A stretch of DNA of 64,000 bases, from the NCBI GenBank assembly GCA_964615175.1, contig CAZTOV010000001.1, forward strand, positions 42,439 through 106,438, read 5' to 3'. A program made the translations under genes and the position numbers. Source of the stretch: an uncultured Burkholderiales bacterium (lineage in GTDB: Bacteria > Actinomycetota > Acidimicrobiia > IMCC26256 > JACPCJ01). Shown piece by piece: positions 47,570 through 64,000 of this stretch (positions are counted from its first letter, which is position 1; each line of letters starts with the position of its first letter). The notes under the pieces were generated by a model. It was not told where the DNA came from. It did no database searches and saw nothing but the letters and a program-made list of their open reading frames with translations.

Positions 47570-48091
47570 ATGGTGATCGACAAGCCGCTCACCGACGACG
47601 AATTCGAGGAGATGTGTACCCGGCGCCTCGATCACACTCGGTACGAGCGCCTCTTCATCGAGTCGAGCTACGTGAAGACTCGCGTCGAGGGCTCGGTCCG
47701 CTACGAAGCGGTCGTCGGCCTCATCGGGGAGCGCAGCGACGGACCCATCGAGATCCTCGGCTTCGACGTCGGCGACAGCGAGGATTCCGAGTTCTGGTCG
47801 CGGGTCCTGTTCGTGCTGCGGATCCGAGGACTCCGGGGCCTCCGAGAAGTCGTGTCGCAGGACGAGCACAGCGGCCTTGCGGACGCGCTGTCGGCCACCT
47901 TCCCCGGAGTCGTGCTGACCTGCGGCGAAGACGCGCGTGAATCCGAGACGCGTCGCCGAACGTCCGACGAAGATCCGAACCACTCGGTCTCGGCGCCGCC
48001 GCGGTGGCAAACGTACGCATCCCCCGGTGCAGTACGCCACCCCGGCGGCGCCGGTTCATCGAGTCGGGCGTGGCCTCCAGCAGCTCGTTGA
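47570..48091 (+). pseudogene. IS256(Mutator)-family transposase-derived fragment with degenerate catalytic residues
   Basis: RRLDHTRYERLFIESSYVKTRVEGSVRYEAVVGLIGERSDGPIEILGFDVGDSEDSEFWSRVLFVLRIRGLRGLREVVSQDEHSGL matches the IS256 core layout (yp.lwlDatyvKvR....v.vAiGv..dG.reiLG..vg.sE....W..fl..L..RGL.gv.lviSDah.G), recalled from memory. It lacks the N- and C-terminal thirds, and the first catalytic D is replaced by E. Confidence 0.6.
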
Positions 48092-48195
48092 GATGCCGCC
48101 CGTCGATGTGAGACCCGGGGATTGATCCCCCTGCCGGAACCACATCAGCGGGCGGAGCTGGGGCGGGCTCCCGCCGGACGGCGCGGTGGCCGCCG

Positions 48196-49713
48196 GTGGG
48201 AGCGCCCCTTCCGCTCTTGGTCGCTGCCGGCACCCCGCAGCCTTCAGCTCCGACACGTCGGATCACGACCGATGCAGAGACGGTCGGACAGGCTTGCGCG
48301 GGAGCGGCGGTGAGGACAAGGGACCGGCGGGTGGCGGCTGGCGTGACACTGTTCGTCGCTGCTTCCGCGTCGTCGGTGCTCGCGTTCGGAGGCAGCGAAC
48401 CCGACGACCGAGCCGCCCCCCTTGATGCCAACGCCGTTCGGACTCCATCGCCCGTCGACTCCGACACCCGACGGGTGCTGCTCTCGCGTGAGGGCGAGCG
48501 GGGTTGGAGTCTCGTCGCGATCGTCAAGGCGGGGCGGCCTCGACTGACCCTGAGCGCGGTCGACGGGAAGGAGTGGGGCGTCGACCGGTACGGCGACCCG
48601 GTGAGCCTGCGCGAGGCCGAGGCGTGGGTGGTGCCCGGTGACGCCGGCGACGGCGATCCGTTCCAGACCCTGATCGTGGGACCGATGCCGGGTGACCACG
48701 CCGTCGACGCGGTGGCGGTCGAGGAGCAGGAGAGTGAGGTGCGGGTCCTCGCCGAGGTCGTCCCGGTCGGGGGCGACGACTTCTACGTGGCCCGGTTCGA
48801 TCGAGCGGTCCGCCACCTCGAGGTGATCGGGTTCAGCGACCGTGCGGAGGTCTTCCGGGAACCCCGGCAGGCGACCTACACCGACATCGGGGCGGGCCCG
48901 ATCGAGGGCGACGCCTGGGTCCTCGACCTGGTGGGCGAGCGGCAGTGGCGTCGCATCGACGTGCTCGTCACCGGCCAGCCCGACGGCGAGCCGGTGCGCA
49001 CGACCGTATGGGGCCCGTACGATTTCGTCGAGCGACGCGTCTCCGACGGCCACGTGTACGACGCCTTCGTGGATCAGGTGCGCGTCACACCTCACGCGAG
49101 GGGGCACGTGATCACCGACCGACGATTCGATTCCTGCCCACCGGAGGCGGGGAGCGGGAACGCGACGGCGGCGGGCGACGTCCGGCCCGAGGCCGGCTTC
49201 GGGGCAAGCGCCCGCTACCACATCGGACCCTGGCGTGAAATCGAATGGCTCCGGGAACATGTCGATCACGTCGAGGTCGTCGAGGAGACGATCGTCGGCG
49301 GACGGCCGACCCTCCGGGTTCGCTTCACCTTCCGCGACAACACACCGCCCCGGCTCGCCACCAAGCGCCGCTATCCGGACGGGCTGGTGTGGTTGATCGA
49401 TCGCCAGACCGGTGTGCTGGTCGGGGAGGAGGGGCCGTTCACCTCGCCGACCGAGGTGAAGATCCTCGGCGTCGACGACGCGGTCGAGCCTCTGGCACCG
49501 AGTGACGTCCGCCTTCCGGGCGGGTCGATCTCCTACCGCCTCCCCCCTGAGGAAACGCCAGGCGATCGGGTTCGCCAGCCTTCGGGGGCGGGTCAGCGGT
49601 CGCCGGCCGTCGAAGGCGGAAGTTCGCTCGCCGACGTTCTCGATCAGTTGGCTCCGGCCGATCGTGAACCGAACGACTGCCCGCGTCGATCGGCGCGTGC
49701 GAGTCGGCCGTGA
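48196..49713 (+). CDS. Hypothetical exported/membrane-anchored protein
   Basis: An internal GTG near 48310 gives VRTRDRRVAAGVTLFVAASASSVLAFGG (signal/anchor). The stop overlaps the PBP start. No family motif recognised. Confidence 0.5.
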   Translation: MGAPLPLLVAAGTPQPSAPTRRITTDAETVGQACAGAAVRTRDRRVAAGVTLFVAASASSVLAFGGSEPDDRAAPLDANAVRTPSPVDSDTRRVLLSREGERGWSLVAIVKAGRPRLTLSAVDGKEWGVDRYGDPVSLREAEAWVVPGDAGDGDPFQTLIVGPMPGDHAVDAVAVEEQESEVRVLAEVVPVGGDDFYVARFDRAVRHLEVIGFSDRAEVFREPRQATYTDIGAGPIEGDAWVLDLVGERQWRRIDVLVTGQPDGEPVRTTVWGPYDFVERRVSDGHVYDAFVDQVRVTPHARGHVITDRRFDSCPPEAGSGNATAAGDVRPEAGFGASARYHIGPWREIEWLREHVDHVEVVEETIVGGRPTLRVRFTFRDNTPPRLATKRRYPDGLVWLIDRQTGVLVGEEGPFTSPTEVKILGVDDAVEPLAPSDVRLPGGSISYRLPPEETPGDRVRQPSGAGQRSPAVEGGSSLADVLDQLAPADREPNDCPRRSARASRP

Positions 49714-51590
49714 GCCTGCAGCGGCGTCGCCTCCTCGCGCTCGGCGCGGCCGTGGGCCTCCTTCTCGTCGCGGCGCTGACCTGGTTCTTGACCCGTCCGA
49801 GCGGGCCGCAGCGGAGCCCCTCGGCACTCGCGCCGGCGTTCCTCGAGCGGTGGGAGGAGTCCGACTGGACGGGCCTCGCCGAACTGGTCCTGCCGCCGGA
49901 TGAGGCGGCCGCAGCCGAGTACGAGCGGCTCGCCGAGGCCCTCGATCTCGATGCCGTGAACGCCGAACTCGGCACGGTCGAGAGCGAGGGCGATGGCGGG
50001 TCAGCCACGTTCACCGCCTCCCTCACTCTCGCGGGCCTGGACGAGTGGGCCTATGAGGGCCGGCTCGCCCTGGTGCGCTCCGACGGGAAGTGGTGGGTCG
50101 ACTGGTCACCCGAGGCGATCCACCCGGAACTCGGTTCGGGACAGCGCCTCGAACGGACGCGCACCTGGCCGGAGCGCGCGCCGATTCTGGGCACCGGCGG
50201 GGACGTCGTCGTGGGGCCTCACGAGGTGATCGATGTCGGTGTCGAGCCCCGCCGGATCGAGGACCGCGACGAGTTGCTCGAGGCGCTGGAGACCCACCTC
50301 GGCCTGGGTCCCGACGCGGTGGTCGCCGAGTTGGAGCGGCCCGGGGTGCAACGCGACTGGTTCGTCCCCCTCACGCAGCTCCGCCCCGACCCGTACGAGG
50401 CGGTGAAACCCGACATCTACTCGGTGCCGGGCACCGTGTTCCGCCGCACCGAGGCGAGGGTGACACCGGAGCGCGACCTGGCCAACCACGTCGCCGGCCG
50501 CACGGGAGAGATCACCGCCGAGCTGCTCGAACGATGGGGCCACCCCTACGTGCAGGGCGACGTGGTCGGCCTGGCGGGCCTCGAACTGGTGTTCCAGGAG
50601 CGCTTGGCGGGGCGACCGTGGGGCGACGTGCGAGTGGTCGACGAGGCGGGCGACCTCGTGAGCGTCCTCCACGACTTCCCCGGCGAGGAGCCGAAACCGC
50701 TGCGGACCAGCCTCGACCTCGACGCGCAACTGGCGGCCGAGGCGTCCCTCGACGGGGTGGAGGAGCCGGCCGCGTTGGTGACGGTCGACACCGCGACGAG
50801 CGAGATCCGGGCGGTCGTGTCGCGACCGGACGACGAGCTGAACCGAGCGCTGGCGGCCCGATACCCGCCCGGGTCGACCTTCAAGATCGTCACCGCGGCC
50901 GCCGCCATCGAGGCCGGCCTCACCGCTCCATCGACGTTCTCGTGTCCCGGCGAGGTGACGGTCGGGGGCAAGCCGTTCCGCAACGCCGGGGGCGAAGCGT
51001 TGGGGCCCGTCTCGTTCGAAGAGGCTTTCGCCGAGTCGTGCAACACCGTGTTCGCAACTCTGGCCGCGGAAGCCGGGGCCGACGCGTTGGCTGACGCCGC
51101 CGAGCGGTTCGGCTTCGGCGCCGAGTACGAGTTGCCGCTCCCGGTGGCGGGTGGGCGCTTCCCCCGGCCCGACGACGATGCGGAGCTGGCCGCCGCCGGG
51201 ATCGGCCAGGGCCGGGTCGAGGCCAGCCCGATCCACATGGCGACGGTGGCCGCGGCGGTCGCTCGCGGGACTTGGCGGCCGCCGGCGTTCTCCGACGACG
51301 CCGTCGGGACCGACGATCGACAGATCGGCTCCTCGACGGCTGATCGTCTGGGCGGCCTGATGCGCACGGTGGTGCAGTCGGGCACCGGGCAGGCGGCCGC
51401 GGTCGACGGCCGTGACGTCGCCGGCAAGACCGGGAGTGCCGAATTCGGCGACGACGACCCGCCCCGCACCCACGCCTGGTTCGTCGGTTTCTCCGACGGG
51501 CTCGCGGTGGCGGTCCTGGTGGAGGGCGGCGGTTCCGGCGGTGAGGTGGCCGCCCCGATCGCCGCCCGCTTCTTCGAGGCGCTTGGATAG
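49710..51590 (+). CDS. Class B penicillin-binding protein (transpeptidase)
   Basis: SxxK (GSTFKIV), SxN (ESCNTVF) and KTG (AGKTGSAEF) occur in the correct order. N-terminal TM (LLALGAAVGLLLVAALTWFL) plus a non-catalytic N-domain. Confidence 0.9.
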   Translation: MSLQRRRLLALGAAVGLLLVAALTWFLTRPSGPQRSPSALAPAFLERWEESDWTGLAELVLPPDEAAAAEYERLAEALDLDAVNAELGTVESEGDGGSATFTASLTLAGLDEWAYEGRLALVRSDGKWWVDWSPEAIHPELGSGQRLERTRTWPERAPILGTGGDVVVGPHEVIDVGVEPRRIEDRDELLEALETHLGLGPDAVVAELERPGVQRDWFVPLTQLRPDPYEAVKPDIYSVPGTVFRRTEARVTPERDLANHVAGRTGEITAELLERWGHPYVQGDVVGLAGLELVFQERLAGRPWGDVRVVDEAGDLVSVLHDFPGEEPKPLRTSLDLDAQLAAEASLDGVEEPAALVTVDTATSEIRAVVSRPDDELNRALAARYPPGSTFKIVTAAAAIEAGLTAPSTFSCPGEVTVGGKPFRNAGGEALGPVSFEEAFAESCNTVFATLAAEAGADALADAAERFGFGAEYELPLPVAGGRFPRPDDDAELAAAGIGQGRVEASPIHMATVAAAVARGTWRPPAFSDDAVGTDDRQIGSSTADRLGGLMRTVVQSGTGQAAAVDGRDVAGKTGSAEFGDDDPPRTHAWFVGFSDGLAVAVLVEGGGSGGEVAAPIAARFFEALG

Positions 51591-51600
51591 GTCGAAGCTG

Positions 51601-51636
51601 ACCGACCCGTTTCGCCTCCCCGCACGTGTACCTGGG
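51601..51636 (+). promoter_or_regulatory. Bipartite motif copy 4 (ACCGACCCG-N15-CGTGTACCTGGG) upstream of LPXTG gene / ECF sigma operon
   Basis: Begins 11 nt after the PBP stop and lies 53 nt upstream of ATG 51689. The ECF sigma gene follows the LPXTG gene on the same strand. Confidence 0.55.
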
Positions 51637-51688
51637 TGAAGGACGGTCGCGCTGGCACCGACCGCGCGGATACACAGATCGGACAAAT

Positions 51689-52225
51689 ATGCAGAAACTC
51701 ACCATTTTTCTGGCCGCCACCGCCGTTGCCTTCCTCGGGATGGCCGGCACGGCCGCAGCCGACGGGCACGAAGCAGCCTGTGACCCCATCCCCACCACCG
51801 AAGACGCCGACAAGGAAGGGGAGGAGATGGGCTCACCGAGCGAGGACTCGGGCCCCGTCGGCCCCGTCGTCGGAGGTCTCCGTGACACGTGCCTGAGCAA
51901 TTCGGAGGACGGACCGAGCCCGGGTGTGCTCTGCGGCGTGGCTGACGGTGTCATTCGCGTGACCGACCAGGCGAGCGAGGACATCGGCGCAGGGATCACG
52001 GGGAGTGACCAGTACGACGAGTTCTGTGTCGCCGGCGACGACGATGACGACGACGGTGATGATGACGACGACGACTCCAACGGCGGAAACGAGAACGACG
52101 GCGTCGCCGCCGCCCAGCAGCAGAGCGCCGGCGCCGACGGGACCCTTCCCCGCACGGGTGGCTTCTCGGTCGCCGGGTTCGGTCTCGTGTCGATCGGCGC
52201 TCTCGTCCGCCGCCTGATCGCATAG
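51689..52225 (+). CDS. LPXTG-anchored acidic cell-wall protein
   Basis: Signal peptide MQKLTIFLAATAVAFLGMAGTAAA, acidic core (DDDDDDGDDDDDD), and the C-terminal sorting signal LPRTG + FSVAGFGLVSIGALV + RRLIA. Confidence 0.8.
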   Translation: MQKLTIFLAATAVAFLGMAGTAAADGHEAACDPIPTTEDADKEGEEMGSPSEDSGPVGPVVGGLRDTCLSNSEDGPSPGVLCGVADGVIRVTDQASEDIGAGITGSDQYDEFCVAGDDDDDDGDDDDDDSNGGNENDGVAAAQQQSAGADGTLPRTGGFSVAGFGLVSIGALVRRLIA

Positions 52226-52316
52226 CCAGAACCGCAGGTCGCCCGCCGATTGCGAAGCCCCCGGTAATCGCGCGTGGTCATCCGGCCATAGAGAGGGTGA
52301 GAGCGCGCATCCGGGG

Positions 52317-52919
52317 GTGAGTGGTGCAGGACGGCGAGCGAGGAGAGTCGTGGCGGCGACCGACGAGCGGTGGTTCGAAGACCTCTGGGATGCGCACGCC
52401 GACCAGGTCAGGGCGTATGCACAGCGGCGGAGCGACGACGAGACCGCCGGCGATGTCGTGGCCGGCACCTTCCTCGTGGCCTGGCGACGGCGCGACGAGG
52501 TGCCCGACGACCCACTGCCCTGGCTCTACGGCGTCGCCCGACGCGTCCTCGCCGACCAGCGCCGCACCCACGGCCGCCAGGCTCGCGTCGCCGAGCGCCT
52601 CGGCGACACGACGAGCGACCGTTCGCCATCCGATCCGTCGGACCAGGTCGCCCAGCGTGACGCCGTGCTCAGGGCGCTCGACCAACTCGGCGAGGCCGAC
52701 CGCGAGGCCCTCCGGCTCGGCTGTTGGGAGCAGCTCACGCCGAAGGAGGCGGCACGCGTGCTCGGATGCTCGGCACCCACGTTCAACGTCCGGCTGCACC
52801 GCGCCCGGCGCCGTCTCCGCCGTCACCTCGACGGATCGCTCGACTCCGGCCGGTGTGGCTCGTCGAGTGTTCAGGACGCCGATGAGAGTCCCGCGCGTGG
52901 CGAGAGGAGCAACCGATGA
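52317..52919 (+). CDS. ECF (group 4) sigma-70 family factor
   Basis: Region 2 (AGDVVAGTFLVAWRRRDEVPDDPLPWLYGVARRVLADQRR) and region 4 HTH (LTPKEAARVLGCSAPTFNVRLHRARRRLRRHL). About 200 aa. Confidence 0.85.
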   Translation: MSGAGRRARRVVAATDERWFEDLWDAHADQVRAYAQRRSDDETAGDVVAGTFLVAWRRRDEVPDDPLPWLYGVARRVLADQRRTHGRQARVAERLGDTTSDRSPSDPSDQVAQRDAVLRALDQLGEADREALRLGCWEQLTPKEAARVLGCSAPTFNVRLHRARRRLRRHLDGSLDSGRCGSSSVQDADESPARGERSNR

Positions 52920-54261: not shown

Positions 54262-55065
54262 ATGGCCGCGACGCAGGCTCGTGACGAGCGGGGCGAGCGG
54301 GGCGAGCCCGCACGGTCGCCGACGAACGAGCTGCCGCCCGCCGCATTCGACTTCGCAACGGTCCGCGACGGCGTGGCTCCGGGCATCGGCCGTCACATCC
54401 TCGTGGTCGACGGCGACGCCGACGACCGCCGGCGCATCAGTCGAACCCTGGAGTTCCAGGGTTTCGCGGTCACGACCGTGTCCCGCATCGACCACGGTCG
54501 GGAGGTCCTCGACCCTGGCCGGGTCGACCTCGTGGTGTTCGATCCCGCGGCCGATGGCGAATGGCCCGAAACGGTCGTTCGCCTCCGCCAGGAGCTTCAC
54601 CTTCCCGTGATCGTCGTGAGCCACGGTGCCGCGGAAGGAGATCGCGTGATGGCGCTGACGCTCGGCGCCGACGACTACCTGGTGAAGCCGCTCTCCACCT
54701 TGGAGCTCGCGGCGCGCGTGCTCGCCGTGTTGCGTCGCTACGACGATCGTGGGTCTCGTGTCGACATCCTCTCGTTCGGTGACATCGAGATCGATCGGAC
54801 CGCCCATGAGGTGAGGGTGCACGGCCACCGGGTGGAGCTGACGCCCAAGGAGTACGACCTGTTGGTCACCCTGGCCGGCCGACCGGGCCGTAGCTGTGGC
54901 CGTGATGAGTTGCTCGGGCGGGTGTGGGGATCGTCAGCCGAATTCCAGGATCCGGCGACGGTGACCGAGCACGTCCGGAGGCTCCGCAAAAAGCTGGGGG
55001 AGGACGCCGAGTCCCCCCGACACCTCGTGACGGTGCGGGGCGCCGGCTACCGCTGGGAACCGTAG
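54262..55065 (+). CDS. OmpR/PhoB-family response regulator (orphan; atypical acidic pocket)
   Basis: Receiver domain (ILVVDGDADDRRRI..DLVVFDPAADG..GADDYLVKP) plus winged-helix domain (LTPKEYDLLVTLAG..HVRRLRKKLGED..LVTVRGAGYRWEP). No histidine kinase gene is adjacent. A ~45-aa N-terminal extension makes the start uncertain. Confidence 0.85.
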   Translation: MAATQARDERGERGEPARSPTNELPPAAFDFATVRDGVAPGIGRHILVVDGDADDRRRISRTLEFQGFAVTTVSRIDHGREVLDPGRVDLVVFDPAADGEWPETVVRLRQELHLPVIVVSHGAAEGDRVMALTLGADDYLVKPLSTLELAARVLAVLRRYDDRGSRVDILSFGDIEIDRTAHEVRVHGHRVELTPKEYDLLVTLAGRPGRSCGRDELLGRVWGSSAEFQDPATVTEHVRRLRKKLGEDAESPRHLVTVRGAGYRWEP

Positions 55066-55237
55066 GACCGGCCGGCGATCCCGAACCCCTCGACTTCCTC
55101 CGGGGTGAGGACGTGGCAGCCTCCACGCTCCGGGTCCGGCTCCTCCCCGGCTCTCCAGAGTTGCCTTCAGCCACGTGCCGGAGCGGATGCTCGCAGTCGA
55201 GTGCGACTGCCGGTGACGGTCGTGTTCGAAGTGCAGC

Positions 55238-55321: not shown

Positions 55322-55357
55322 CCCAGGTACACGGTCGAGAGCCCCGAAAGTGTCGGT
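55322..55357 (-). promoter_or_regulatory. Bipartite motif copy 5, minus strand (ACCGACACT-N15-CGTGTACCTGGG)
   Basis: The reverse complement of 55322-55357 reads ACCGACACTTTCGGGGCTCTCGACCGTGTACCTGGG. It points away from the S8 gene toward the hairpin and the response-regulator 3' end. No convincing ORF lies downstream. Confidence 0.45.
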
Positions 55358-55423: not shown

Positions 55424-55459
55424 CCCGACCCGTTTCCTACCCTCGATCGTGCACCTGGG
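55424..55459 (+). promoter_or_regulatory. Bipartite motif copy 6 (CCCGACCCG-N15-CGTGCACCTGGG) immediately upstream of S8 peptidase
   Basis: Box2 at 55448-55458 has one T-to-C change. AGGAGGG at 55461-55467 and starts at 55469/55472 follow directly, implying a very short leader if this is a promoter. Confidence 0.45.
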
Positions 55460-55468
55460 TAGGAGGGT

Positions 55469-56947
55469 GTGATGTCGTCGTCGATGCGTGACAGAGCGGG
55501 CGAGCGAGCCACAAGGCGTGGTGTCGCGCGCCTCGCCACGATCGTCGTGCTCCCGCTCCTCGCCGCCGGCCCCGCCTTGGCGGGGGCCGCTGCCCCGAAC
55601 GACCCCGGATTGGAGCAGCAGTGGGCCCTCGACACGATCGGCGCGCCGGAGGGCTGGGCGCGGGGCACCGGCGCCGGGATGGCGATCGCCATCGTCGACA
55701 GCGGTGTCGACCTCGACCACGAAGACCTCGCGTCGAAGATCGACGACCGCGACCGTGTGTCGTGCATCGGCTCGGGCGGCGACGCGGCCAACTGCAAGCC
55801 CGGTGGCGACGACGACCACGGACATGGCACCCATGTGGCCGGCATCGCCGCCGCTGCCACCGGCAACGGCCGGGGCGTTGCCGGGGTGGCACCCGACGCC
55901 CGCCTCATGGTCGTGAAGGTGCTCGAGAACGACGAGGCCACCGGCGACGCGTCCGGGACTGCTTCCGACGTCCGCGCGGGGATCGTGTGGGCCGTCGACC
56001 ACGGCGCCGACGTGATCAACCTGTCCCTCGGTGAGAACGTCCTGATCCGGGGGCTGATCGGCAGCTCGCTCGAGGATGCCGTCACGTACGCGTGGAACAA
56101 CGGCGCCGTCCCGGTTGTCGCCGCGGGCAACGCCGACACCCTGTTCGGGAGCGGATACGGCGATCTCCCCGCCCTCGTCGTGACCGCGACGAACCGGAAC
56201 GACGCCAAGGCCTCCTACGCGAGCAACGTCGGCGACGCGGAATGGGGGATGGCTGCCCCTGGCGGCGAGGGAACGGACGAGGGCACGGCGATCCTCTCCA
56301 CCTTCTGGGATCCCGAGGATCCAGAGAACCATCGATCGTATGGGTCGGGGTCGGGCACGTCGATGGCGGCACCACACGTCGCCGGAGCGGCGGCGATCCT
56401 CCGATCCCTCGGGCTCTCCCGCGACGACACCGTGAACCGGCTCCTCGACACCGCGGCCGATATCGGGCCTCCCGGCGACGACTCGCAGACGGGCGCCGGA
56501 CGCCTCGACCTCGACGCCGCCACCGCAGGGTTGGGCAGCAGCTCCGGGCCGGACGGGTCACCCAGCACGACCACCACTGCGCAGCGGGTGACGACCACCA
56601 CCGCCATGGCGCAGCCGGGCGGTCGCGATGGCTCGGGGCCGTCGGGGCCCGACGACATGATCGTCACCGGCGAGGAGCCGGTGCCCGGAGGCGACGGCGG
56701 CTCCGACCCCTCGTCACCGGGGAGTGAACCGCGTGACACCTCGGACCCGTCGGTCCGCGATGACCCCCGTGCCGCGCCGCCCGCGGACGGTTCGGCCTCC
56801 CGCCCGCCCGCTCCAGGCGACGGCGGGTCGGGCGCCGCGTTGTGGGTGATCCTCGGCCTCGCCGCCCTGTTCGTGGCGCCGGTGGGCTACCGGTGGTGGC
56901 GTGGCCGCTCCGGGTCGCCTGCGCCCGACGACACGGGGCGCCGGTAG
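55469..56947 (+). CDS. Subtilisin-like S8 serine peptidase with Pro-rich stalk and C-terminal TM anchor
   Basis: Catalytic triad motifs VDSGVDLDH, HGTHVAGIAAA and GTSMAAPHVAGAAA. Signal peptide LATIVVLPLLAAGPALAGAAA. C-terminal helix ALWVILGLAALFVAPVGYRWWRGR. The start may instead be ATG 55472 or 55484. Confidence 0.9.
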   Translation: MMSSSMRDRAGERATRRGVARLATIVVLPLLAAGPALAGAAAPNDPGLEQQWALDTIGAPEGWARGTGAGMAIAIVDSGVDLDHEDLASKIDDRDRVSCIGSGGDAANCKPGGDDDHGHGTHVAGIAAAATGNGRGVAGVAPDARLMVVKVLENDEATGDASGTASDVRAGIVWAVDHGADVINLSLGENVLIRGLIGSSLEDAVTYAWNNGAVPVVAAGNADTLFGSGYGDLPALVVTATNRNDAKASYASNVGDAEWGMAAPGGEGTDEGTAILSTFWDPEDPENHRSYGSGSGTSMAAPHVAGAAAILRSLGLSRDDTVNRLLDTAADIGPPGDDSQTGAGRLDLDAATAGLGSSSGPDGSPSTTTTAQRVTTTTAMAQPGGRDGSGPSGPDDMIVTGEEPVPGGDGGSDPSSPGSEPRDTSDPSVRDDPRAAPPADGSASRPPAPGDGGSGAALWVILGLAALFVAPVGYRWWRGRSGSPAPDDTGRR

Positions 56948-57481: not shown

Positions 57482-57873
57482 AGTTCCTCTTCAAGGAGCT
57501 CCCGGGTCAGACAGGCGATTCCACGCGACCCGTCGTGCCCGTCGAGGTCGAGGGGCTGACGCGTGCGCCCCAGTTGTGCCTCCTCGACACCGGTGCGCTC
57601 CACAACCGGTTCGGCGCGTGGGTGGCAGAGGCAGCCGGCATCGACCTCACGTCCTCCGAGGAGGAGCAGCTCGCGGTCGGCGGCTTTCGCACGGTCGCTC
57701 GCTCCGCGTCGGTGCAGTTGACGCTCGGCGACGAGACCTGGGAGGCGCCGGTGTGGTTCTGCGATCCCTGGCCGCTCGGCTTCCATCTCCTGGGCCAGGA
57801 GGGCTTCTTTCGTTGGTTCGACGTTCGCGTGCGAGCCGCCCGCTACACGGTCGAGGTTGTTTCGGAGCAGTGA
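57478..57873 (+). CDS. Retropepsin-like (clan AA) aspartic peptidase-fold protein
   Basis: The hallmark hh-D-T-G-A is present (CLLDTGALHNRF), and a C-terminal LLGQEGF-type motif follows. The GTGA start overlaps the upstream stop. Confidence 0.6.
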   Translation: MKFLFKELPGQTGDSTRPVVPVEVEGLTRAPQLCLLDTGALHNRFGAWVAEAAGIDLTSSEEEQLAVGGFRTVARSASVQLTLGDETWEAPVWFCDPWPLGFHLLGQEGFFRWFDVRVRAARYTVEVVSEQ

Positions 57874-58208
57874 GGCCGGCGGTTCGACGGTCACCCGGCT
57901 GGTCGGGACGGCACGGCGATCGGCGGCCCGAAACGAGCATCACCCGGGGGAGCGGCGCCGGTTGCGGCGTTGCGGTGGGCCCGGTCGAAGCGGGTCGGCG
58001 CGGCTCGTAGAAGCCCCGCAGTGGGCCCCGGTGGCATCCCCGCTTCGGGGTTCTGGGCCCTCGCCGGATCCTTTGGGGGCCCTGGCTGCGATCACTCTGC
58101 GTCCACGTACCTGGTCCGAGCCTTCGCACGGGTCGCGCTCCGCGTCGTTCGTGCGGGCGGGCAGCCCGTTTCTTTGGGTCGCGACCGACTCTTTCGGCCC
58201 TCTCATTC

Positions 58209-59456
58209 GTGACCCTGGAGGGGGAGGCATCGGCCCGAAGCTGGTTGAGGCCGGTGCAGTGCCGTCGCCGAGGCAGGGGAGCGAGGAGGCTGACCGTGGA
58301 CCGACAGGAGCAGGCAGACCACAGAACGTCACCGCCCACTCACGGAGCGGGGGGTGAGATCTTCACGGTCGAGGCCCTGTGGCACGAACACGGGGCGCGC
58401 CTCGTGCGCCTGGCCCGCCGCCTGCTCGACGATCGGGGTTCGGCTGATGCCGCCAGCCACGCCGTGTTGGTGCGGGCGGCCGCATGGCTCGATCTCACCG
58501 CGCGGCCCGTCCCCGAGTCGGCGGCCTGGTGGTGGCTCGAGCGGCTCTGCCACGACGTCTCGCGTGAGATCGGCGACCACGGCGTCGACCCGGCATGGGT
58601 GACCGGTGAACCGCTGCCTCGGTCGGTTCCCGAACGACTGCGAGCCCGTCTCCGATCGTGGGCGCTCGAGACGACATCGAGGGCTTCGGAGTCCGCTGGT
58701 CCGATCAGCCAGGCGAGACACCGCGACCGCGCGCGCTGGCGGGAGCTGTTCGACCGCAAGCTGCGCGATCTTCCCGTCGTGGTGCTCCTCCCCGGACTGG
58801 TCCGGAGAGCCGCCGCCGGCACAGGTCGGGCGGCGCGGGCGGCGTGGCGCCGGTCGGAGGCCCTCTCTCCGGCGAGCATGTCGACCCAGCGGGTGGTCGG
58901 GATGTTCGCCGCCGGTCCCGGCGTGCTGGAGGCGGCAGCCGCCTTCACGGTTGCGTTGGCCGTGGGGAGCGGGCTTTCCGGGTCGGTCACCCCGCCGGCG
59001 CCCCCGCCGGTGCCGCTCGCCCAGCGCGTCGAGGTGGCCATGGCGCAGTCGGAGCTTGAGCCACCACCCGACGAGCCCGTCGAAGTCGAGGTCGCCCCGC
59101 CCCCCGTCGCGCCGGAGCCGGCACCCGAGCCCGACGCGACCACGGAGCCTGCCCCTGATCCGGAGCCGGAACCGGAGGCCGACCCCCTGCCCGTCGCCGC
59201 CACCGTGTCCGCCGATCCGGTCAAGAACGTCGAAGAGCCGGTCCAGGAAGACGATTGGGAAGGTGGGAAGCGCTACCGCACCCCGAGCGAGCGGGTGAGC
59301 GTCGACGCCGATGGTGATGGCGAAGAGGATGCCTTCGCGACGACACCCACCGCGGGTTGGAACTGTCCCAATGACCCAGACAAACGGAGACCTGGCAGCG
59401 AGTACGTGTGTCCAGTGCTTGAGGAGTCAGGCATTCCAACAGAGGAGATGGGCTGA
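58209..59456 (+). CDS. Hypothetical membrane protein with sigma-region-2-like N-terminus and Pro/Glu-rich extracytoplasmic segment
   Basis: ALWHEHGARLVRLARRLLDDRGSADAASHAVLVRA is weakly similar to sigma-70 region 2. A central TM (VVGMFAAGPGVLEAAAAFTVALAVG) is followed by a PEP-rich tract. Start uncertain. Confidence 0.4.
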   Translation: MTLEGEASARSWLRPVQCRRRGRGARRLTVDRQEQADHRTSPPTHGAGGEIFTVEALWHEHGARLVRLARRLLDDRGSADAASHAVLVRAAAWLDLTARPVPESAAWWWLERLCHDVSREIGDHGVDPAWVTGEPLPRSVPERLRARLRSWALETTSRASESAGPISQARHRDRARWRELFDRKLRDLPVVVLLPGLVRRAAAGTGRAARAAWRRSEALSPASMSTQRVVGMFAAGPGVLEAAAAFTVALAVGSGLSGSVTPPAPPPVPLAQRVEVAMAQSELEPPPDEPVEVEVAPPPVAPEPAPEPDATTEPAPDPEPEPEADPLPVAATVSADPVKNVEEPVQEDDWEGGKRYRTPSERVSVDADGDGEEDAFATTPTAGWNCPNDPDKRRPGSEYVCPVLEESGIPTEEMG

Positions 59457-59504
59457 GTCATGCGTTCCCGTTGGCTTGCGCTCTCCACGGGCGTCGCGAA
59501 GCCT

Positions 59505-59777
59505 TCACATGTTGTCAATGCAGAAGAAGTAGTCCCACGTGATCCCGAAGGCTCCGCCGGGATTGGGCCCGAAGGTTCCTCCGGGCCCACACGTCCAATC
59601 GTTGCAATACGACACGACGGTCTCGGTGGTGGTGGTGCTGTCGTTCCCGACCTCGACGTAGCCGCACGGAGCGGGATGCTCGTCGGCCTGGGCCGACGTG
59701 GTCGAAAGACCGATGCCGAGCGCCGACGTCACGGCGACGGTGGTGGCGATCAGGCGGATCAGCGCGGCTCGGGTCAC
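59505..59777 (-). CDS. Small secreted cysteine-rich peptide (90-aa precursor)
   Basis: GGAGGAGGA lies 6 nt upstream of the GTG at 59777. Signal peptide MTRAALIRLIATTVAVTSALGIGLSTTSAQA|DEH. The mature ~58 aa contain 4 Cys and an aromatic C-terminus (ITWDYFFCIDNM). Confidence 0.65.
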   Translation of the reverse strand: MTRAALIRLIATTVAVTSALGIGLSTTSAQADEHPAPCGYVEVGNDSTTTTETVVSYCNDWTCGPGGTFGPNPGGAFGITWDYFFCIDNM

Positions 59778-59847
59778 CGGTCGTCCTCCTCCATCACGTC
59801 CGTCTCAACGGTGCGTCAACGACACCGTACGTGCCCTGGCTCGACCC

Positions 59848-59873
59848 CTCCCTCCCCCGGTCGGGGGAGGGAG
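59848..59873. repeat. Extended member of the C5/G5 palindrome family (11-bp stem)
   Basis: CTCCCTCCCCC-GGTC-GGGGGAGGGAG, located between the divergent small-peptide gene and the PucR-like gene. Confidence 0.8.
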
Positions 59874-59910
59874 CCCACATCTCCTCGTCGTCCCGAGGGG
59901 GTGGCCGGTC

Positions 59911-61236
59911 ATGGCTGAGGCCGAGAACGGCGCCGGGGGCGAGGTCGGGTGGCTCGCCCTCGCGGCCATGGTGTCGCTCACCAACGATGCCGACACGGTG
60001 GTCGCCGAGGTGGTCGAGCGAGTACGCGAGCACGAGGCCGCCGACGAGGCGGTGGTCGCCGGCGTGGTCGAGGGATCCGACGTCGAGGTGCTGGTGCGCG
60101 AGGTCGCGGGGTTGCTGGGTGAGGCGCTCCGGGCCCGCCGCCCACTCGACGCCTCCGAGACCGCGGTGGTCTCGGAGAGGGCCGACGGCATGATCGCCAC
60201 GGGTGCGCCGCTCGAGATCGTCCGCCAGGCGGTCCACGCCACCTGCGCGGTGGTGCTCGACCGCCTCGCGACGGCCGGGCAGGCGCGTCCGGCCGAGGCG
60301 CCACCCGAGCTGCTCGGGCGCCTGTTCGGCATCGTCGCCGACTGCGAGTTCGACCTCCTCGGCGCCATCGGCGCGGCGGCGCGCAGTGTGGGCGACGACG
60401 ATGCCACCCGCGACGAGCGCCTGCGCGAGGCGTTCCTGCACCGGGTGCTCGAGGGGCCGGTCCACGACCCCGTGGCCACGGCTCGGCAGGGCCGCGCGCT
60501 GAAGCTCGACCTGACCCCGCCCTTCGGCTTGGTGCTCCTGATCGAGCCCCTCGGGTGGACCGACGACCCCTCGACCGAGTCGTTCGAGGAGCAGGTGCTC
60601 CGCTGCCGCCGCCGGCCCGAGCAGCGCCTGCTGCCGGCGGTGTTCGTCGAACCCGACCCGGCGGTGCCCCAGAGCGCCATCCTCGTCGTGCCGGCCCACG
60701 CGGGGGAGGCGGCCGAAGCGGTAGAGGAGGCGCTGATCGAGGAGCGCGACGCGTCGGGGCTTCTCTTCGTCACGGCGACCGCTGCCAGCATCGGGGAGAT
60801 TCCCGCCGTCTACCACCGCATGCGCCGGATCGTCCCGGTCATGCCCCGGTGCGCGCGCCACCTGGACGCGGTGCCCACGCTCGACGCGGTGCTGCCCTAC
60901 TGGTCGGCGGAGCGACTCCCCGACGTGTGGGCCGAGTACCTGCTGCGCGCGGAGGTGGGCCCGCTCATGGCGAGCGTGCGGACCAGCCGGCTCGTGCACA
61001 CCTGGCTCCTCTTGGTCCGCGAGCGCCTCACCGACGCCGAGGCCGCCGAGCGGCTCCATGTGGCCCCCGGCACGGTGCGGAAGCGCCGGAGGACGATCGA
61101 GGGGTTGACCGGGCGCCGCCCGGGCCCGGAGTCGTTCCACGCGCAGCTCGCCTCCTACGTCTACGAGTTGTGGGAGCCGGACCTGCCGGTCCCGGGCGAC
61201 CCCTGGTGGACGGGCGACGATGCGTCGGCGGACTGA
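59911..61236 (+). CDS. PucR/CdaR-like transcriptional regulator
   Basis: The C-terminal HTH LTDAEAAERLHVAPGTVRKRRRTIEGLTG resembles the PucR-type HTH, and the N-terminal domain is helical. ATG 59911 is preferred over the ORF-track 59698, which overlaps the minus-strand peptide gene. Confidence 0.55.
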   Translation: MAEAENGAGGEVGWLALAAMVSLTNDADTVVAEVVERVREHEAADEAVVAGVVEGSDVEVLVREVAGLLGEALRARRPLDASETAVVSERADGMIATGAPLEIVRQAVHATCAVVLDRLATAGQARPAEAPPELLGRLFGIVADCEFDLLGAIGAAARSVGDDDATRDERLREAFLHRVLEGPVHDPVATARQGRALKLDLTPPFGLVLLIEPLGWTDDPSTESFEEQVLRCRRRPEQRLLPAVFVEPDPAVPQSAILVVPAHAGEAAEAVEEALIEERDASGLLFVTATAASIGEIPAVYHRMRRIVPVMPRCARHLDAVPTLDAVLPYWSAERLPDVWAEYLLRAEVGPLMASVRTSRLVHTWLLLVRERLTDAEAAERLHVAPGTVRKRRRTIEGLTGRRPGPESFHAQLASYVYELWEPDLPVPGDPWWTGDDASAD

Positions 61237-61262
61237 TCCACCCGCCCTCGCCGGCTCCGCTC

Positions 61263-61282
61263 GCTCCCCCGATCGGGGGAGC
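61263..61282. repeat. 20-bp perfect palindrome GCTCCCCCGATCGGGGGAGC containing the family 16-mer
   Basis: Located 27 nt after the PucR-like stop. Could act as a terminator hairpin. Confidence 0.9.
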
Positions 61283-61447
61283 CGCCGTCTGGCGTCGGGA
61301 TCAAGGGGCGCCGATGGAGTGGTTTCCGCACGTTCTCGACGCCGAAACGTAGCGGCGCGCGCCCTCGACCCGCTCGCTCGCTCTTCGTACGGTGCGGCCG
61401 GAGTTCGAAGGAGGTGACGACGACTCGGCATCCAGCACGGTCGCACG

Positions 61448-62350
61448 TTGCCTCGTAGACGCCGCTCCGCGGCCCCGTCACGCGGGGACCGCGCGAGCCA
61501 CGAGTGGTGGAGGACCTCACTGTTGCCTTCGCAGGTCGACCAAGCACAACGGCACATCGAAGAGGTGCGCGCCCGCGAGGAGGTTCCCGACGCGGACGCG
61601 TATCGCGCCCTCCTGCGCGCCTGCGCCGAGGAACCCCAGCCCGACATCGCGGTGCAGACGGTGGCCGAGATGGGCCACGACGGCATCACCGTCGGTGCTG
61701 CCGACCACGACGCCCTCCTGATCGCTCACCTGTTCCGGGGGCGCGCCGAGGATGCCGAGGCCTATCTCCGTGCGCTCCCATGGGGGGTCGTCACCCCCGA
61801 CCACTACCGGTGGGTCCTCTGGGCGTACGCCGTCCGGGGTCGCGTGGACGAGGTCGAGCGGCTCTTCGAGGAGTTCGACGGCTCGCCCGTCCTCCCCGAC
61901 GACGACTGCCGGCTCTTGCTCCTGTCCACGTTGACCCAGGGTTGCCATGCCGCCCGCGCCCGCCGCTGGTACTCGCGGTTCGTCCCCCGCGACCGCAAGC
62001 CCGAGCCGCTGTTCGTCGCGCGCCTCATCGACGCCCACGGCCACCCCGATCACCACGAGGAGCTGGTCGCCATCTACGAGCGGTTCGGTGACGAGGTCGG
62101 CCGCCATCCTGAGGTCGCCGCCGCGCTCGTGCACGCCTTCGCCCTTGCCGACGATCCCGTACGCGCCGAAGAGCTGCTGCGCCTGGCCCTCCGGGTTGTC
62201 CGAGACCCCGACGTGTGCGAGGAGATGTTCCTCGAATGCGTCACTGCCTACCAGCGGGTCGGCCGGGAGCGGGAGACCGACACCGGCGAATCCGTCGAGC
62301 GCCTCGCCGCGCTGGCCAACGAGAAGGACGTCGCCGTCGAGTACCTCTGA
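61448..62350 (+). CDS. Helical-repeat protein with PPR/TPR-like ~35-aa repeats
   Basis: Repeats include AYRALLRACAEEPQPDIAVQTVAEMGHDGITVGAA, DHDALLIAHLFRGRAEDAEAYLRALPWGVVTP and DHYRWVLWAYAVRGRVDEVERLFEEFDGSPVLPD. They follow the PPR pattern (aromatic-x-x-L-hydrophobic..G..deA..lf.eM...G..P). Start uncertain. Confidence 0.55.
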   Translation: MPRRRRSAAPSRGDRASHEWWRTSLLPSQVDQAQRHIEEVRAREEVPDADAYRALLRACAEEPQPDIAVQTVAEMGHDGITVGAADHDALLIAHLFRGRAEDAEAYLRALPWGVVTPDHYRWVLWAYAVRGRVDEVERLFEEFDGSPVLPDDDCRLLLLSTLTQGCHAARARRWYSRFVPRDRKPEPLFVARLIDAHGHPDHHEELVAIYERFGDEVGRHPEVAAALVHAFALADDPVRAEELLRLALRVVRDPDVCEEMFLECVTAYQRVGRERETDTGESVERLAALANEKDVAVEYL

Positions 62351-62523
62351 CCGACGACACCGCGTATGAAGAGGTGTTTGCCAGCGCCATCCCGATCGGT
62401 GGCCGCGAGATCGACGGCATGCCGTTGACCTTCGTCATGATCACCGGCTTGAACGCGGGTGGCGACCCCGAACCGCTCGCATACCTCTCCGGCTACGCGG
62501 CCGGGCTGCAGCTGGTGTGGTGA
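62351..62523 (+). pseudogene. C-terminal fragment of a GDPEPL-family (IS256-derived) paralog
   Basis: ..AYEEVFASAIPIGGREIDGMPLTFVMITGLNAGGDPEPLAYLSGYAAGLQLVW* parallels ..PEAFVAAARVGSREINDIPFTVVTVTGLNRAGDPEPLTYFSGYA of the 63670 gene, and nucleotide similarity is visible too. It has no N-terminal half and no obvious start. Confidence 0.5.
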
Positions 62524-62556
62524 AGCCGGAGGGTCGGGTCGCGGAATGTGGGGCCC

Positions 62557-62674
62557 AAGGACCTCAGCGGATAGGTCGAATTACCGTTGCGTTCTTGACT
62601 GTGAATTGCCCGCTCAGCGGGCAATTCACAGTCAAGAACCAGGACTCGATGTGCGCCTATCCGCTGAGGTCCTT
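62557..62674. repeat. Nested perfect palindrome: 19-bp outer inverted repeat enclosing a 49-bp perfect palindrome (24-bp arms)
   Basis: Outer repeat: AAGGACCTCAGCGGATAGG (62557-62575) pairs with CCTATCCGCTGAGGTCCTT (62656-62674). Inner palindrome: GTTCTTGACTGTGAATTGCCCGCT-C-AGCGGGCAATTCACAGTCAAGAAC (62591-62639). It is locally AT-richer than its surroundings. Confidence 0.9.
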
Positions 62675-62685
62675 AGGCGAAGGCA

Positions 62686-62792
62686 ACGGTGACCGAGCCC
62701 TCCGGAGGCTTCGCAAGAAGCTGGGAGAGGATTCCGAGTCCCTCAGACACCTCGTGACGGTGCGGGGCGCGGGGTGCCGCTGGGATCCCTGA
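62686..62792 (+). pseudogene. Remnant copy of the 3' end of the OmpR-type response regulator gene
   Basis: ACGGTGACCGAGCCCTCCGGAGGCTTCGCAAGAAGCTGGGAGAGGATTCCGAGTCCCTCAGACACCTCGTGACGGTGCGGGGCGCGGGGTGCCGCTGGGATCCCTGA parallels 54959-55065. It encodes ..LRRLRKKLGEDSESLRHLVTVRGAGCRWDP* against ..VRRLRKKLGEDAESPRHLVTVRGAGYRWEP*. Confidence 0.8.
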
Positions 62793-62814
62793 TCTTGGCC
62801 GATCGGTCGAACGG

Positions 62815-62850
62815 ACCGACCCGAATCACGCCCTCGTTCGTGTACCTGGA
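62815..62850 (+). promoter_or_regulatory. Bipartite motif copy 7 (ACCGACCCG-N15-CGTGTACCTGGA)
   Basis: Box1 at 62815-62823 and box2 at 62839-62849. It sits between the response-regulator remnant and the 62874 ORF. Confidence 0.5.
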
Positions 62851-62873
62851 GAGCGCTGGTTGCGTCGGGGTGA

Positions 62874-63413
62874 ATGCCGCGGACGAGCGTCAACCAAGTC
62901 AAGCGAGTGGGGATGGCGAATATGGGGGAGCAGGACTTCAGGACACGTGCCCGGCAGGGTGCCGATGCCCGTCTCGATGAGGCGCTCCGGCAGCTGCTCG
63001 AGGTGGCCGACGACCTTCAGCAGAACCGTGGGGTGGCCCTCGATCTTGTGATGGAGGATCTCTTGGATGTGGTGATGACGAGGCCGCTTCACGACCTGCG
63101 GATCCAGGAGGTCTACATCGAGGCCACCCGTTCCCATCCCGGGCGTTCGGTCGTCGTCACAGCCACCGGTCTTGATGACGTCGGCGATCCGGAACCGTTG
63201 GACGTCATTCATGCGGAGGATGTCTCACCGTCGACGCTCGCCACCCAACTCCTGATGCGTTTGCGCGACCGGGGGCTTGGAGGTGTTCGTCGAGTCGTGT
63301 CGAGCGCCGGTACGAACCTCGTCGGCGTGGTTCCGGCGGTATTTCCCGATGCCGGATGGCTTCCGCTCGGAACGGGTGAACGTCCATCGTGGCTCACGCT
63401 TCCCGAGGTGTGA
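62874..63413 (+). CDS. GDPEPL-family protein: IS256-transposase-core-derived, catalytic residues lost
   Basis: EVYIEATRSHPGRSVVVTATGLDDVGDPEPLDVIHAEDVSPSTLATQLLMRLRDRGLGGVRRVVSSAGTNLVGVVPAVFPDAGW aligns position by position with the 47570 fragment and the IS256 core. The D of lDatY is replaced (IEATR) and SDahxG becomes SSAGTN. The start may be ATG 62913 or 62922. Confidence 0.55.
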   Translation: MPRTSVNQVKRVGMANMGEQDFRTRARQGADARLDEALRQLLEVADDLQQNRGVALDLVMEDLLDVVMTRPLHDLRIQEVYIEATRSHPGRSVVVTATGLDDVGDPEPLDVIHAEDVSPSTLATQLLMRLRDRGLGGVRRVVSSAGTNLVGVVPAVFPDAGWLPLGTGERPSWLTLPEV

Positions 63414-63605
63414 ACGCGCCACCCATACGCCATTCTCACTCGCAAAACTGGGGAGGCGACCAACCATTCCCCACGCAGGAGGCGGCGTGTCGGCGTGTCC
63501 GCACCAGCGGTCCGACGGCTTCGGGGCGGTTCGAACGCCCCGCCCGTCGAAGACGTCCATCCCTGGTGACCGCAACCGGCGCGGAACAGAAAAACAGGGA
63601 GCGTC

Positions 63606-63641
63606 ACCGACCCGTTTGGGGGGTCGGAACGTGTACCTGGG
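63606..63641 (+). promoter_or_regulatory. Bipartite motif copy 8 (ACCGACCCG-N15-CGTGTACCTGGG)
   Basis: Box1 at 63606-63614 and box2 at 63630-63640, lying 29-54 nt upstream of ATG 63670/63694. Confidence 0.5.
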
Positions 63642-63669
63642 AGAGGGCGTCCAATGCCCTGACCAACCC

Positions 63670-64000
63670 ATGAACTCGCCCCAGGAACCCACCATGACTT
63701 CGAGCGACGAACCGGCGAACGCCGGATCCTCCCTCGACGGACTGCTCCGTCGCCTCCTCACGCTCACCGAGGCCCCTGTGCCTGACGAACTCCTGGAGGC
63801 TGACCTGGACGTCGTTCTCGAGGAGATCGAGGACGAGGTCGGTTCCCGTCGCCTCAACGACTCCTACCCCGAGGCCTTCGTCGCCGCGGCCCGCGTGGGC
63901 TCGCGCGAAATCAACGACATCCCGTTCACCGTGGTCACGGTCACCGGCTTGAACCGTGCCGGCGACCCCGAACCGCTCACCTATTTCTCGGGGTACGCCG
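63670..64000 (+). CDS. GDPEPL-family (IS256-derived) paralog, 3'-truncated by window edge
   Basis: Hand translation gives MNSPQEPTMTSSDEPANAGSSLDGLLRRLLTLTEAP..RRLNDSYPEAFVAAARVGSREINDIPFTVVTVTGLNRAGDPEPLTYFSGYA. Not in the ORF track because no stop lies inside the window. Confidence 0.55.
   Translation, partial: MNSPQEPTMTSSDEPANAGSSLDGLLRRLLTLTEAPVPDELLEADLDVVLEEIEDEVGSRRLNDSYPEAFVAAARVGSREINDIPFTVVTVTGLNRAGDPEPLTYFSGYA

Follow-up and report, generated by a model that had tools for sequence, protein, structure and literature searches.

Short, putatively domesticated proteins derived from half of an IS256-family transposase core in an Acidimicrobiia-like bacterium

Five IS256-related loci in a 64-kb window

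The window analyzed here is a stretch of 64,000 nucleotides with a G+C content of ∼70% (contig CAZTOV010000001.1, positions 42,439 to 106,438). Five loci in it, all on the forward strand, are related to the catalytic core of IS256/Mutator transposases: three short genes, designated A, C and D, and two fragments, designated B and C1'. A preliminary description of this DNA had listed A, B, C and D; tblastn within the window and profile tests showed that these four exist in the frames given there and are related to each other and to IS256, and the fifth piece, C1', had been missed. Within the window, B matched D with 54% identity over 48 amino acids (E 1e-14), C matched D with E values of 1e-5 to 1e-6 and C matched A with an E value of 1e-3. 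The GDPEPL element of the core motif that the same description had drawn from these loci is not present in A, which reads GPIEIL.

Gene A has its database start at 47570 and ends at 48091. A possible GTG start codon lies at 47462, overlapping the stop codon of the upstream M23 peptidase gene, and is probably the actual start. The gene is divided into a constrained core (47570–47914) and an unconstrained tail (47915–48091). Gene C (62913–63413) is intact and encodes 166 amino acids (P0001); its longest open reading frame (ORF) begins at 62874, and the most likely start is M14 of that frame, at 62913. Gene D is also intact and encodes 167 amino acids (P0006). It starts at 63694 and runs past the window end at 64000; the Logan contig L001, which overlaps the window end, places its end at 64197 in window coordinates and gives a full length of 167–175 amino acids. 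The D protein ends in ...YPDTEWLRLPPGSMPAWLHLGGDERR, which parallels the ending ...FPDAGWLPLGTGERPSWLTLPEV of C.

Locus B (62350–62516) is a fragment of a D-like paralogue that corresponds to approximately codons 63–118 and is truncated on both sides. It shares 54% amino acid and 79% nucleotide identity with D, and 78% nucleotide identity with the D-like gene of contig L005. Its left boundary is the stop codon of a PPR-like gene and its right boundary is a 38-nt element, which is followed by a 126-nt hairpin. C1' (55069–55130; tblastn match 55071–55145) is a remnant of a C-like gene, GDPEPLDFLRGEDVAASTL, located 5 nt past the stop codon of a response-regulator gene. It matches C with 60% identity over 25 amino acids in tblastn. 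At the DNA level C1' is 82–88% identical to the C-like genes of contigs L004, L006 and L007, and similarity to the window's own C is undetectable. C1' is thus the remnant of the true orthologue, and the intact C of the window is a more diverged paralogue with a low G+C content at third codon positions (GC3).

Homology to the first half of the IS256 catalytic domain

The preliminary description had assigned the loci to the IS256 transposases by the family consensus, and profile searches bore this out. Against the Pfam profile PF00872 (Transposase_mut), A matched positions 145–248 of 379 with an E value of 7.8e-21 and a score of 74.8 (cut-off 21). The C frame (62874–63413) matched the same stretch with an E value of 1.2e-3 and a score of 18.3–18.5, below the Pfam cut-off of 21. 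All eight members of the C/D family matched PF00872 at E ≤ 1, the best at 2e-5; the window parts of B and D taken alone gave no match to this profile. The NCBIfam IS256 profile (NF033543) matched A, C and D with E values of 2.1e-19, 3.8e-6 and 1.9e-6. The corresponding scores of 69.7, 26.1 and 27.1 bits fall short of the cut-off of 150 bits, which sets the short proteins (26–70 bits) apart from the curated family. The matches are confined to approximately profile positions 145–250 of 379, and no separate Pfam family was found for these proteins. In hhalign comparisons, the C/D profile aligned to the A profile with a probability of 98.5% (E 1.9e-15, 109 columns) and to an alignment of 49 full-length IS256 transposases with a probability of 98.3% (E 1.5e-14). 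When all PDB sequences were searched with the profiles, the only significant match was the transposase TnpA of ISCth4, with E values of 1.1e-5 for C/D and 6.8e-14 for A.

An AlphaFold2 model of C, computed from eight sequences only, reached a mean predicted local distance difference test score (pLDDT) of 86.5 and a predicted template modelling score (pTM) of 0.79. It consists of two N-terminal helices followed by a β-β-β-α-β-α-β arrangement. A Foldseek search of the PDB with this model returned ISCth4 chains as the best matches (E 2e-6, TM score 0.5 on the query), with retroviral integrases and RNase H domains in the next places, and C is therefore predicted to adopt the RNase H-like fold of a catalytic core. 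The sequence comparisons thus show A, C and D to be homologues of the catalytic domain of IS256/Mutator transposases, limited to its first half.

Loss of catalytic residues, flanking domains and IS ends

ISCth4 is a member of the IS256 family, and its transposase comprises a dimerisation domain (residues 1–56), an NDB domain (56–108), a helix-turn-helix (HTH) domain (108–165), a catalytic domain in two segments (165–261 and 325–407) and an insertion domain (261–325) (PMC7780238). The catalytic residues are D175, D241 and E348, and the insertion domain carries C262 and H265 (PMC7780238). The short proteins align to ISCth4 TnpA (PDB 6xg8/6xgw/6xgx; PMC7780238) over residues ∼143–265, which form the last helix before the catalytic domain and the first half of that domain, with its RNase H-like β-sheet core. 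The alignment stops where the insertion domain begins. The RxL, LR.RGL and FPxAxW landmarks of IS256 transposases are also kept in the short proteins.

The position of D175 is occupied by Glu in A and C and by Ala in D, and the sequences reported earlier around this site in the four loci (IESSY, FASAI, IEATR and VAAAR) were confirmed. At the position of D241, C has Ser and D has Pro, and only A keeps the Asp; the earlier claim that the second Asp is replaced as well is therefore right for C and D and wrong for A. The E348 region, the CxxH motif, the insertion domain and the N-terminal dimerisation and DNA-binding parts are all absent from A, C and D. Consistently, full-length transposases used as tblastn queries against the 64-kb window matched the cores of A and C only and found no N- or C-terminal parts, so the missing terminal thirds had been recognised correctly. 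No intact IS256 element is present in the window, and no inverted repeats flank A, C or D. The lack of E348, of CxxH and of the DNA-binding N-terminus, together with the changed aspartates, excludes transposase activity on sequence grounds, and A, C and D cannot be transposases.

The comparison with IS256 transposases can be extended to other features. Different from those enzymes, the short proteins have lost the dimerisation, NDB, HTH and insertion domains, CxxH and the third catalytic residue, with the first Asp replaced throughout and the second in C and D; their genes have no terminal inverted repeats and occupy fixed chromosomal positions, and the proteins are acidic rather than basic. 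Of the functional features that define the IS256 family, they thus share the core fold only.

The N-termini of C and D had been described as new helical additions. This holds for the first helix, which has no detectable ancestor; the second helix has a homologous counterpart in real transposases, namely the helix ahead of strand 1. An origin of the first helix from the N-terminal dimerisation domain of transposases was considered and is not supported (HMMER sub-hit of -1.3 bits; alternative hhalign hit with a probability of 0.5%). A C-terminal segment, (E)RPxWLxL, is found in the C/D branch only and is conserved there.

Homologues at syntenic positions

Four C-like homologues (54–59% identity, 170–177 amino acids), two D-like homologues (80–82%, 167–182 amino acids) and eight A-like homologues (42–67%, 144–215 amino acids) were gathered. 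Every one of them is short, including the A orthologues P0010–P0013, and the truncation points and lengths are the same across homologues at 54–82% identity. The nearest relative of A in named genomes is found in a metagenome-assembled genome of Acidimicrobiia (L008), on which a tentative placement of the source genome is based.

The gene order around these homologues is conserved. On contig L088, just as in the window, the motif is followed by an M23 peptidase gene and then by an A-like gene (the motif is the bipartite element described in the next section). The D-like genes of L005, L091, L093 and L001 are all followed by the same gene for a secreted protein of 561–576 amino acids, and in L005, L091 and L093 a Cys-rich gene of 141–142 amino acids comes next (L001 ends earlier); in L005 the full order is S8 peptidase, motif, D-like gene and the 575- and 142-amino-acid genes. 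In L004 and L007 an OmpR-type regulator gene, the motif and the C-like gene are followed by genes for a GAF kinase, a GerE regulator and a large sigma factor. L006 has the same downstream genes and a hydrolase gene upstream of the C-like gene. The more distant contig L094 (JGI 3300042194, Ga0395770_0000147) has four short IS256-core paralogues at 2749–14388, within a 16-kb cluster, three of the four behind variants of the motif; the cluster also encodes M23 and S8 peptidases, a GAF histidine kinase, a GerE response regulator and a sigma factor with a BNR/sortilin-like extension. Orthologues thus occupy syntenic positions in different genomes, as immobile genes do.

One reading of this arrangement is that the short proteins are dedicated to the secreted peptidases encoded next to them and pair with them in the cytoplasm, for example as a chaperone, inhibitor or immunity-like factor. 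An M23 gene is followed by an A-like gene in two genomes, an S8 gene is followed by a D-like gene in L005, and a C-like gene overlaps an S8 gene in L094; the short proteins are moreover acidic and have no signal peptide. However, the adjacency can be explained by a shared regulon, in L004, L006 and L007 it is a response-regulator gene and not a peptidase gene that precedes the C-like gene, and no protease partner with an RNase H-like fold is known to us. We regard a peptidase-partner role as quite unlikely.

A bipartite promoter-like motif upstream of the short genes

C and D had been reported to sit directly behind two copies of a bipartite motif. The motif reads CGAC(C/T)CG-N15-CGTGTACCTGG and occurs eight times in the window (0.08 copies expected by chance), at 104–136, 14799–14831, 45821–45853, 51603–51635, 55323–55355 (reverse strand), 55426–55458, 62817–62849 and 63608–63640. 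A weak ninth copy lies at 58186–58218. Copy 7 (62817–62849, forward strand) is 63 nt from the start of C at 62913 and copy 8 (63608–63640, forward strand) is 53 nt from the start of D at 63694, which verifies the reported arrangement. Copy 3 (45821–45853, forward strand) precedes the M23 peptidase gene and A, and a start of A at GTG 47462 would place A, too, downstream of this copy. The genes behind the other copies encode the M23 and S8 peptidases, an LPXTG surface protein and two giant surface proteins.

The motif is conserved together with the genes. The equivalent of copy 7 is kept before the C-like genes of L004, L006 and L007, and that of copy 8 before the D-like genes of L005 and L091; overall, a motif of the same spacing precedes C-like, D-like and other short paralogues in L004, L005, L006, L007, L091, L093 and L094, and the motif is also found upstream of orthologous M23, S8, kinase and giant-protein genes. 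It is formed by two conserved blocks with ∼17 nt between CGAC and CGT, in one orientation, 10–110 nt before start codons. No sigma-70-type promoter was predicted in 62300–64000. Given its form and position, the coherent set of envelope genes behind it and the genes for sigma factors of the extracytoplasmic function (ECF) type nearby, we infer that the motif is an ECF-sigma-type promoter. An exact-motif scan of Joint Genome Institute (JGI) metagenomes returned 43 single matches, which are taken as chance occurrences because none is near a family member.

The motif was also considered as an IS end, a possibility that the preliminary description had named as one that would undo its reading, and was rejected as such. 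The closest full-length IS256 elements have terminal repeats of the form GTCCCG..GAGTGGTGGG, ∼1.39 kb apart; these are unrelated to the motif and do not occur above chance in the window, and the motif is kept upstream of orthologues elsewhere. A related proposal sees the short genes as parts of a composite element that can still move and has the motif for a terminal repeat. Each short gene is indeed accompanied by the motif and by some dozens of bases from the 3' end of the gene upstream, and one divergent motif pair exists, 55323(-) and 55426(+). Yet the motif copies point to the downstream gene and form no inverted pairs around the short genes, the motif also stands before the proteases and giant surface proteins, its sequence is unlike the nearest real IS256 repeats, and the proteins are without everything required for catalysis. 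A mobile element of this kind is extremely improbable.

Purifying selection and the case for domestication

The ratio of nonsynonymous to synonymous substitution rates (dN/dS) was calculated by the Nei-Gojobori method (NG86) and its deviation from 1 was assessed by Fisher's test. It was 0.17–0.43 for C-like pairs, 0.25–0.36 for D-like pairs and 0.27 for the A core, in all three cases significantly below 1 (p 1e-5 to 1e-17), although dS was saturated in the comparisons that involve the window's C. The flanking genes of the same genomes gave 0.32–0.69. No frameshifts were found among the orthologues. Neither a ratio near 1 nor broken orthologous frames, the two marks of plain pseudogenes named in the preliminary description, were thus found. 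That description had left open whether the loci are decaying IS relics or a domesticated gene family, with a preference for the latter. A, C and D behave as maintained genes and B and C1' are plain relics, and the preference for domestication is supported by the profile matches, the dN/dS values and the distinction of the motif from an IS repeat.

With transposase descent and purifying selection both found for the family, and with its genes immobile, the short family fits the concept of domesticated transposases as far as sequence can tell. A, C and D are probably domesticated, non-catalytic, lineage-specific stand-alone proteins that arose from half of an IS256/Mutator transposase.

The breadth of the family was surveyed by a HMMER scan of 1.84 billion representative sequences with the C/D profile, which returned 272 matches; almost all of the best ∼40 are 140–220 amino acids long. 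The innermost matches have lost one or both aspartates, and the sequence DATY...SD.HGG is still present in the outer matches, among them the A-like proteins. A neighbour-joining tree was built from the 98-column core; in it the short forms, in 58 clusters at 50% identity, group together, and the canonical and full-length transposases fall outside. This lends moderate support to one old truncation followed by a radiation. A wider reading builds on it: a single ancient truncation of IS256 would have given an acidic half-RNase-H domain, which radiated into at least 58 subfamilies in the Acidimicrobiia-like lineage, lost its catalytic residues stepwise and came, gene by gene, under the ECF-type promoter from which secreted proteases and giant surface proteins are expressed as well. 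Its members would then be previously undescribed regulators or adaptors, possibly a protein decoy or DNA mimic. We offer this wider reading tentatively and hold it somewhat short of probable. One match from the representative search, P0023 (313 amino acids), is a tandem fusion of an A-like domain and a C/D-like domain, which hints that the modules may work as dimers.

Several observations weigh against domestication and against its wider form. A, C and D are known here from their genes alone. The 57-codon tail of A has a neutral dN/dS of 0.90 and a GC3 of 0.64, which is non-coding-like (0.88 in the core), so that A is a constrained core with a drifting tail. The GC3 of C is 0.71, compared with 0.83–0.91 in its homologues and 0.84–0.88 in neighbouring genes, and the last 2 kb of the window are lower in G+C (0.658); a foreign source, recombination or a relaxation of constraint could account for this. 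Since the window's C has no close orthologue, selection on it was deduced from a long, saturated branch. Intact frames alone count for little, because high-GC genomes keep long ORFs open by chance. The AlphaFold2 model of A is too poor for a structural conclusion (pLDDT 54), and the promoter reading draws on the position and conservation of the motif alone. The short clade was recovered exactly in 27 of 100 bootstraps, or in 89 of 100 when up to five leaf changes are allowed, and the taxa of the tree had been picked by the C/D profile itself. Pattern scans for C/D-like genes found none in GTDB representative genomes and none in JGI metagenome contigs, and family members come from a handful of metagenome assemblies only; P0018 nevertheless lies on the JGI metagenome contig L094.

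Some of these points would suit plain pseudogenes, that is, old IS256 relics with frames open by chance in a high-GC genome: the neutral tail of A and the low GC3 of C do, as do the clear relics B and C1' and the patchwork of gene remnants that makes up the locus. The cores, however, have dN/dS values as low as the flanking genes, their truncation points and lengths are identical across diverged homologues, and their synteny and upstream motif are conserved. The C model is confident and compact, the new C-terminal segment is conserved, and no other transposase parts are nearby. We therefore consider pseudogenes very unlikely as an account of A, C and D.

A possible protein-binding role and relation to known systems

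The short family has a median isoelectric point (pI) of 4.84; for C and D the pI is ∼4.2–4.7, and their net charges are -10 and -19, respectively. For full-length transposases the median pI is 9.44, and their core regions are at ∼6.5. The strongly acidic character of the family, compared with the basic transposases, makes direct nucleic-acid binding unlikely and favours protein binding, which is the most likely role of the short family as judged from its composition.

We propose that the truncated IS256/Mutator core gave rise to lineage-specific stand-alone proteins of ∼150–200 amino acids, which would be made together with an envelope/protease regulon through the ECF-type promoter and would act by binding another protein, as a non-enzymatic adaptor, decoy or regulator. 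In the C/D branch, the new N-terminal helix and the new C-terminal (E)RPxWLxL segment may stabilise the half-domain. The partner could be one of the regulon's signalling proteins, one of the neighbouring peptidases, or else a DNA-binding protein of basic character, for instance a transposase.

The last of these partners leads to another explanation, in which the truncated cores are stress-induced dominant-negative inhibitors that bind and poison active IS256 transposases. Truncated transposases are known as inhibitors of transposition elsewhere, namely Tn5 Inh and the P-element KP protein, and these resemble the short proteins in being shortened, catalytically incompetent transposase derivatives with a possible protein-protein action. 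An acidic family would suit the binding of basic transposases, and related Acidimicrobiia and other Actinomycetota commonly carry full-length IS256 elements. But Tn5 Inh and KP are encoded inside an active element and are near-identical to its transposase, whereas the short genes here are stand-alone, chromosomal and represented by several old paralogues with their own promoter-like element. The identity to any real transposase core is 30–49% here (38–49% for A and ∼31% for C). The canonical N-terminal dimerisation domain is absent and no homology of the new helix to it was found, the diverged paralogues are kept at fixed non-IS loci beside protease genes, and the window holds no intact IS256. 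An inhibitor role is accordingly judged unlikely.

Domesticated relatives are better represented in eukaryotes, where FHY3/FAR1 and MUSTANG are Mutator-like transposases taken over by the host. They have in common with the short family the transposase superfamily, immobility, purifying selection and recruitment for host regulation, the last of which is inferred here. They keep the N-terminal DNA-binding domain and most of the transposase length and act as transcription factors; the proteins in this study, in contrast, are bacterial, comprise half of a catalytic core, and are acidic, so that DNA binding is unlikely. A bacterial parallel is provided by TldR proteins, nuclease-dead derivatives of TnpB that serve as regulators. 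They, too, are transposon-encoded nucleases that have lost catalysis and been recruited by the host, yet they belong to another superfamily (RuvC-type, RNA-guided) and their mechanism keeps nucleic-acid binding, whereas neither a guide RNA nor nucleic-acid binding is indicated for the short proteins.

Domestication of DDE transposases is well documented in eukaryotes. Bacterial cases are rarely described, and transposase fragments in bacteria are as a rule put aside as pseudogenes; within the searchable library, the literature contained nothing relevant on a domesticated IS256 or Mutator core in bacteria. In the present family, half of a catalytic domain without the DNA-binding part appears to have persisted for long, to have been duplicated and to have come under a dedicated regulatory element that it has in common with envelope proteases. 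It is the scarcity of bacterial examples, combined with the retention and amplification of only half the catalytic domain, that makes the family noteworthy. If the proposal is true, a partial RNase H fold can be made stable and put to new use without enzymatic activity, the motif and the short genes form a marker set for an uncharacterised regulon in poorly studied Acidimicrobiia-like bacteria, and annotations as 'truncated IS256 transposase' can hide real genes.

Gene remnants, duplication and repeat elements

The short genes C and D are each accompanied by the 3' remnant of another gene on the forward strand. A 110-nt remnant of an OmpR-type response-regulator gene (62683–62792), 87–88% identical at the nucleotide level to 54954–55061, travels with motif copy 7 and C, and an intact regulator gene occupies its place in L004 and L007. 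A remnant of ∼60 nt from an S8 peptidase gene (63509–63570), encoding ...VEDVHPW before the stop codon, travels with motif copy 8 and D and is homologous to the S8 3' end and the intergenic region of L005 and L091. Intact counterparts lie elsewhere in the window, namely an OmpR-type response-regulator gene at 54262–55065 and an S8 peptidase gene with its own complete 3' end at 55469–56947. The copy at 54262–55130 thus keeps the response regulator and S8 peptidase and has the C-like gene only as a stub, and the copy at 62683–63640 keeps C and D and has the regulator and S8 genes only as 3' stubs. The two regions thus record a segmental duplication with complementary losses. As dead remnants of further paralogues, B and C1' show birth-and-death turnover within the family and not to transposition.

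Two repeat elements border B. The 38-nt element, GTGGTGAAGCC.G.GGGTCGGGTCGCGGAATGTGGGGC, is 92% conserved at three places (62517–62554, L001:2385–2422 and L005:11410–11446), and two of these sites lie between a D-like gene and the 575-amino-acid gene. It has no Rfam match, and a Rfam scan of the window and L001 returned no match either. The 126-nt hairpin (62553–62678) is near-perfect, with a minimum free energy of -123 kcal/mol and a z score of -10, and separates B from the response-regulator remnant. The Logan contigs L001–L003 start inside this hairpin, and L089 and L090, which come from the same samples, terminate with its right half; such contig ends indicate a repeated element of the source genome, similar to a miniature inverted-repeat transposable element (MITE) or a repetitive extragenic palindromic (REP) sequence.

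Other features of the window

The 44–64 kb part of the window is devoted to envelope and secreted functions; PADLOC gave no defence-system match. This part contains a penicillin-binding-protein-like gene, a gene for an acidic LPXTG protein preceded by a motif copy, and the gene for an ECF sigma factor (52317–52919) followed by a DUF4349 protein gene. The M23 peptidase gene (45903–47465, forward strand; Pfam PF01551, E 8e-18) is the conserved upstream neighbour of A. Low-complexity repeats rich in Asp and Glu, encoded by runs of GACGAC and GAAGAC, occur at 46285–46447 in the M23 peptidase and at 52014–52101 in the LPXTG protein, the genes of which both lie behind the motif. Two paralogues of 1824 amino acids, secreted or anchored, are encoded at 241–5715 and 14919–20390, ∼14.7 kb apart, with a near-identical motif copy before each; they are 36–37% identical to a homologous giant protein encoded downstream of the sigma gene in L007.

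The sequence ATCCCCCGATCGGGGGAT at approximately 45578–45595, upstream of motif copy 3, forms a perfect palindrome of 18 bp. A GC hairpin resembling it is found at 47506–47527, just past the M23 stop codon and inside the possible N-terminal extension of A. This hairpin encodes 'PFGGW', which is conserved in A-like orthologues. It may work as a terminator or attenuator, or may be there for the protein motif alone.

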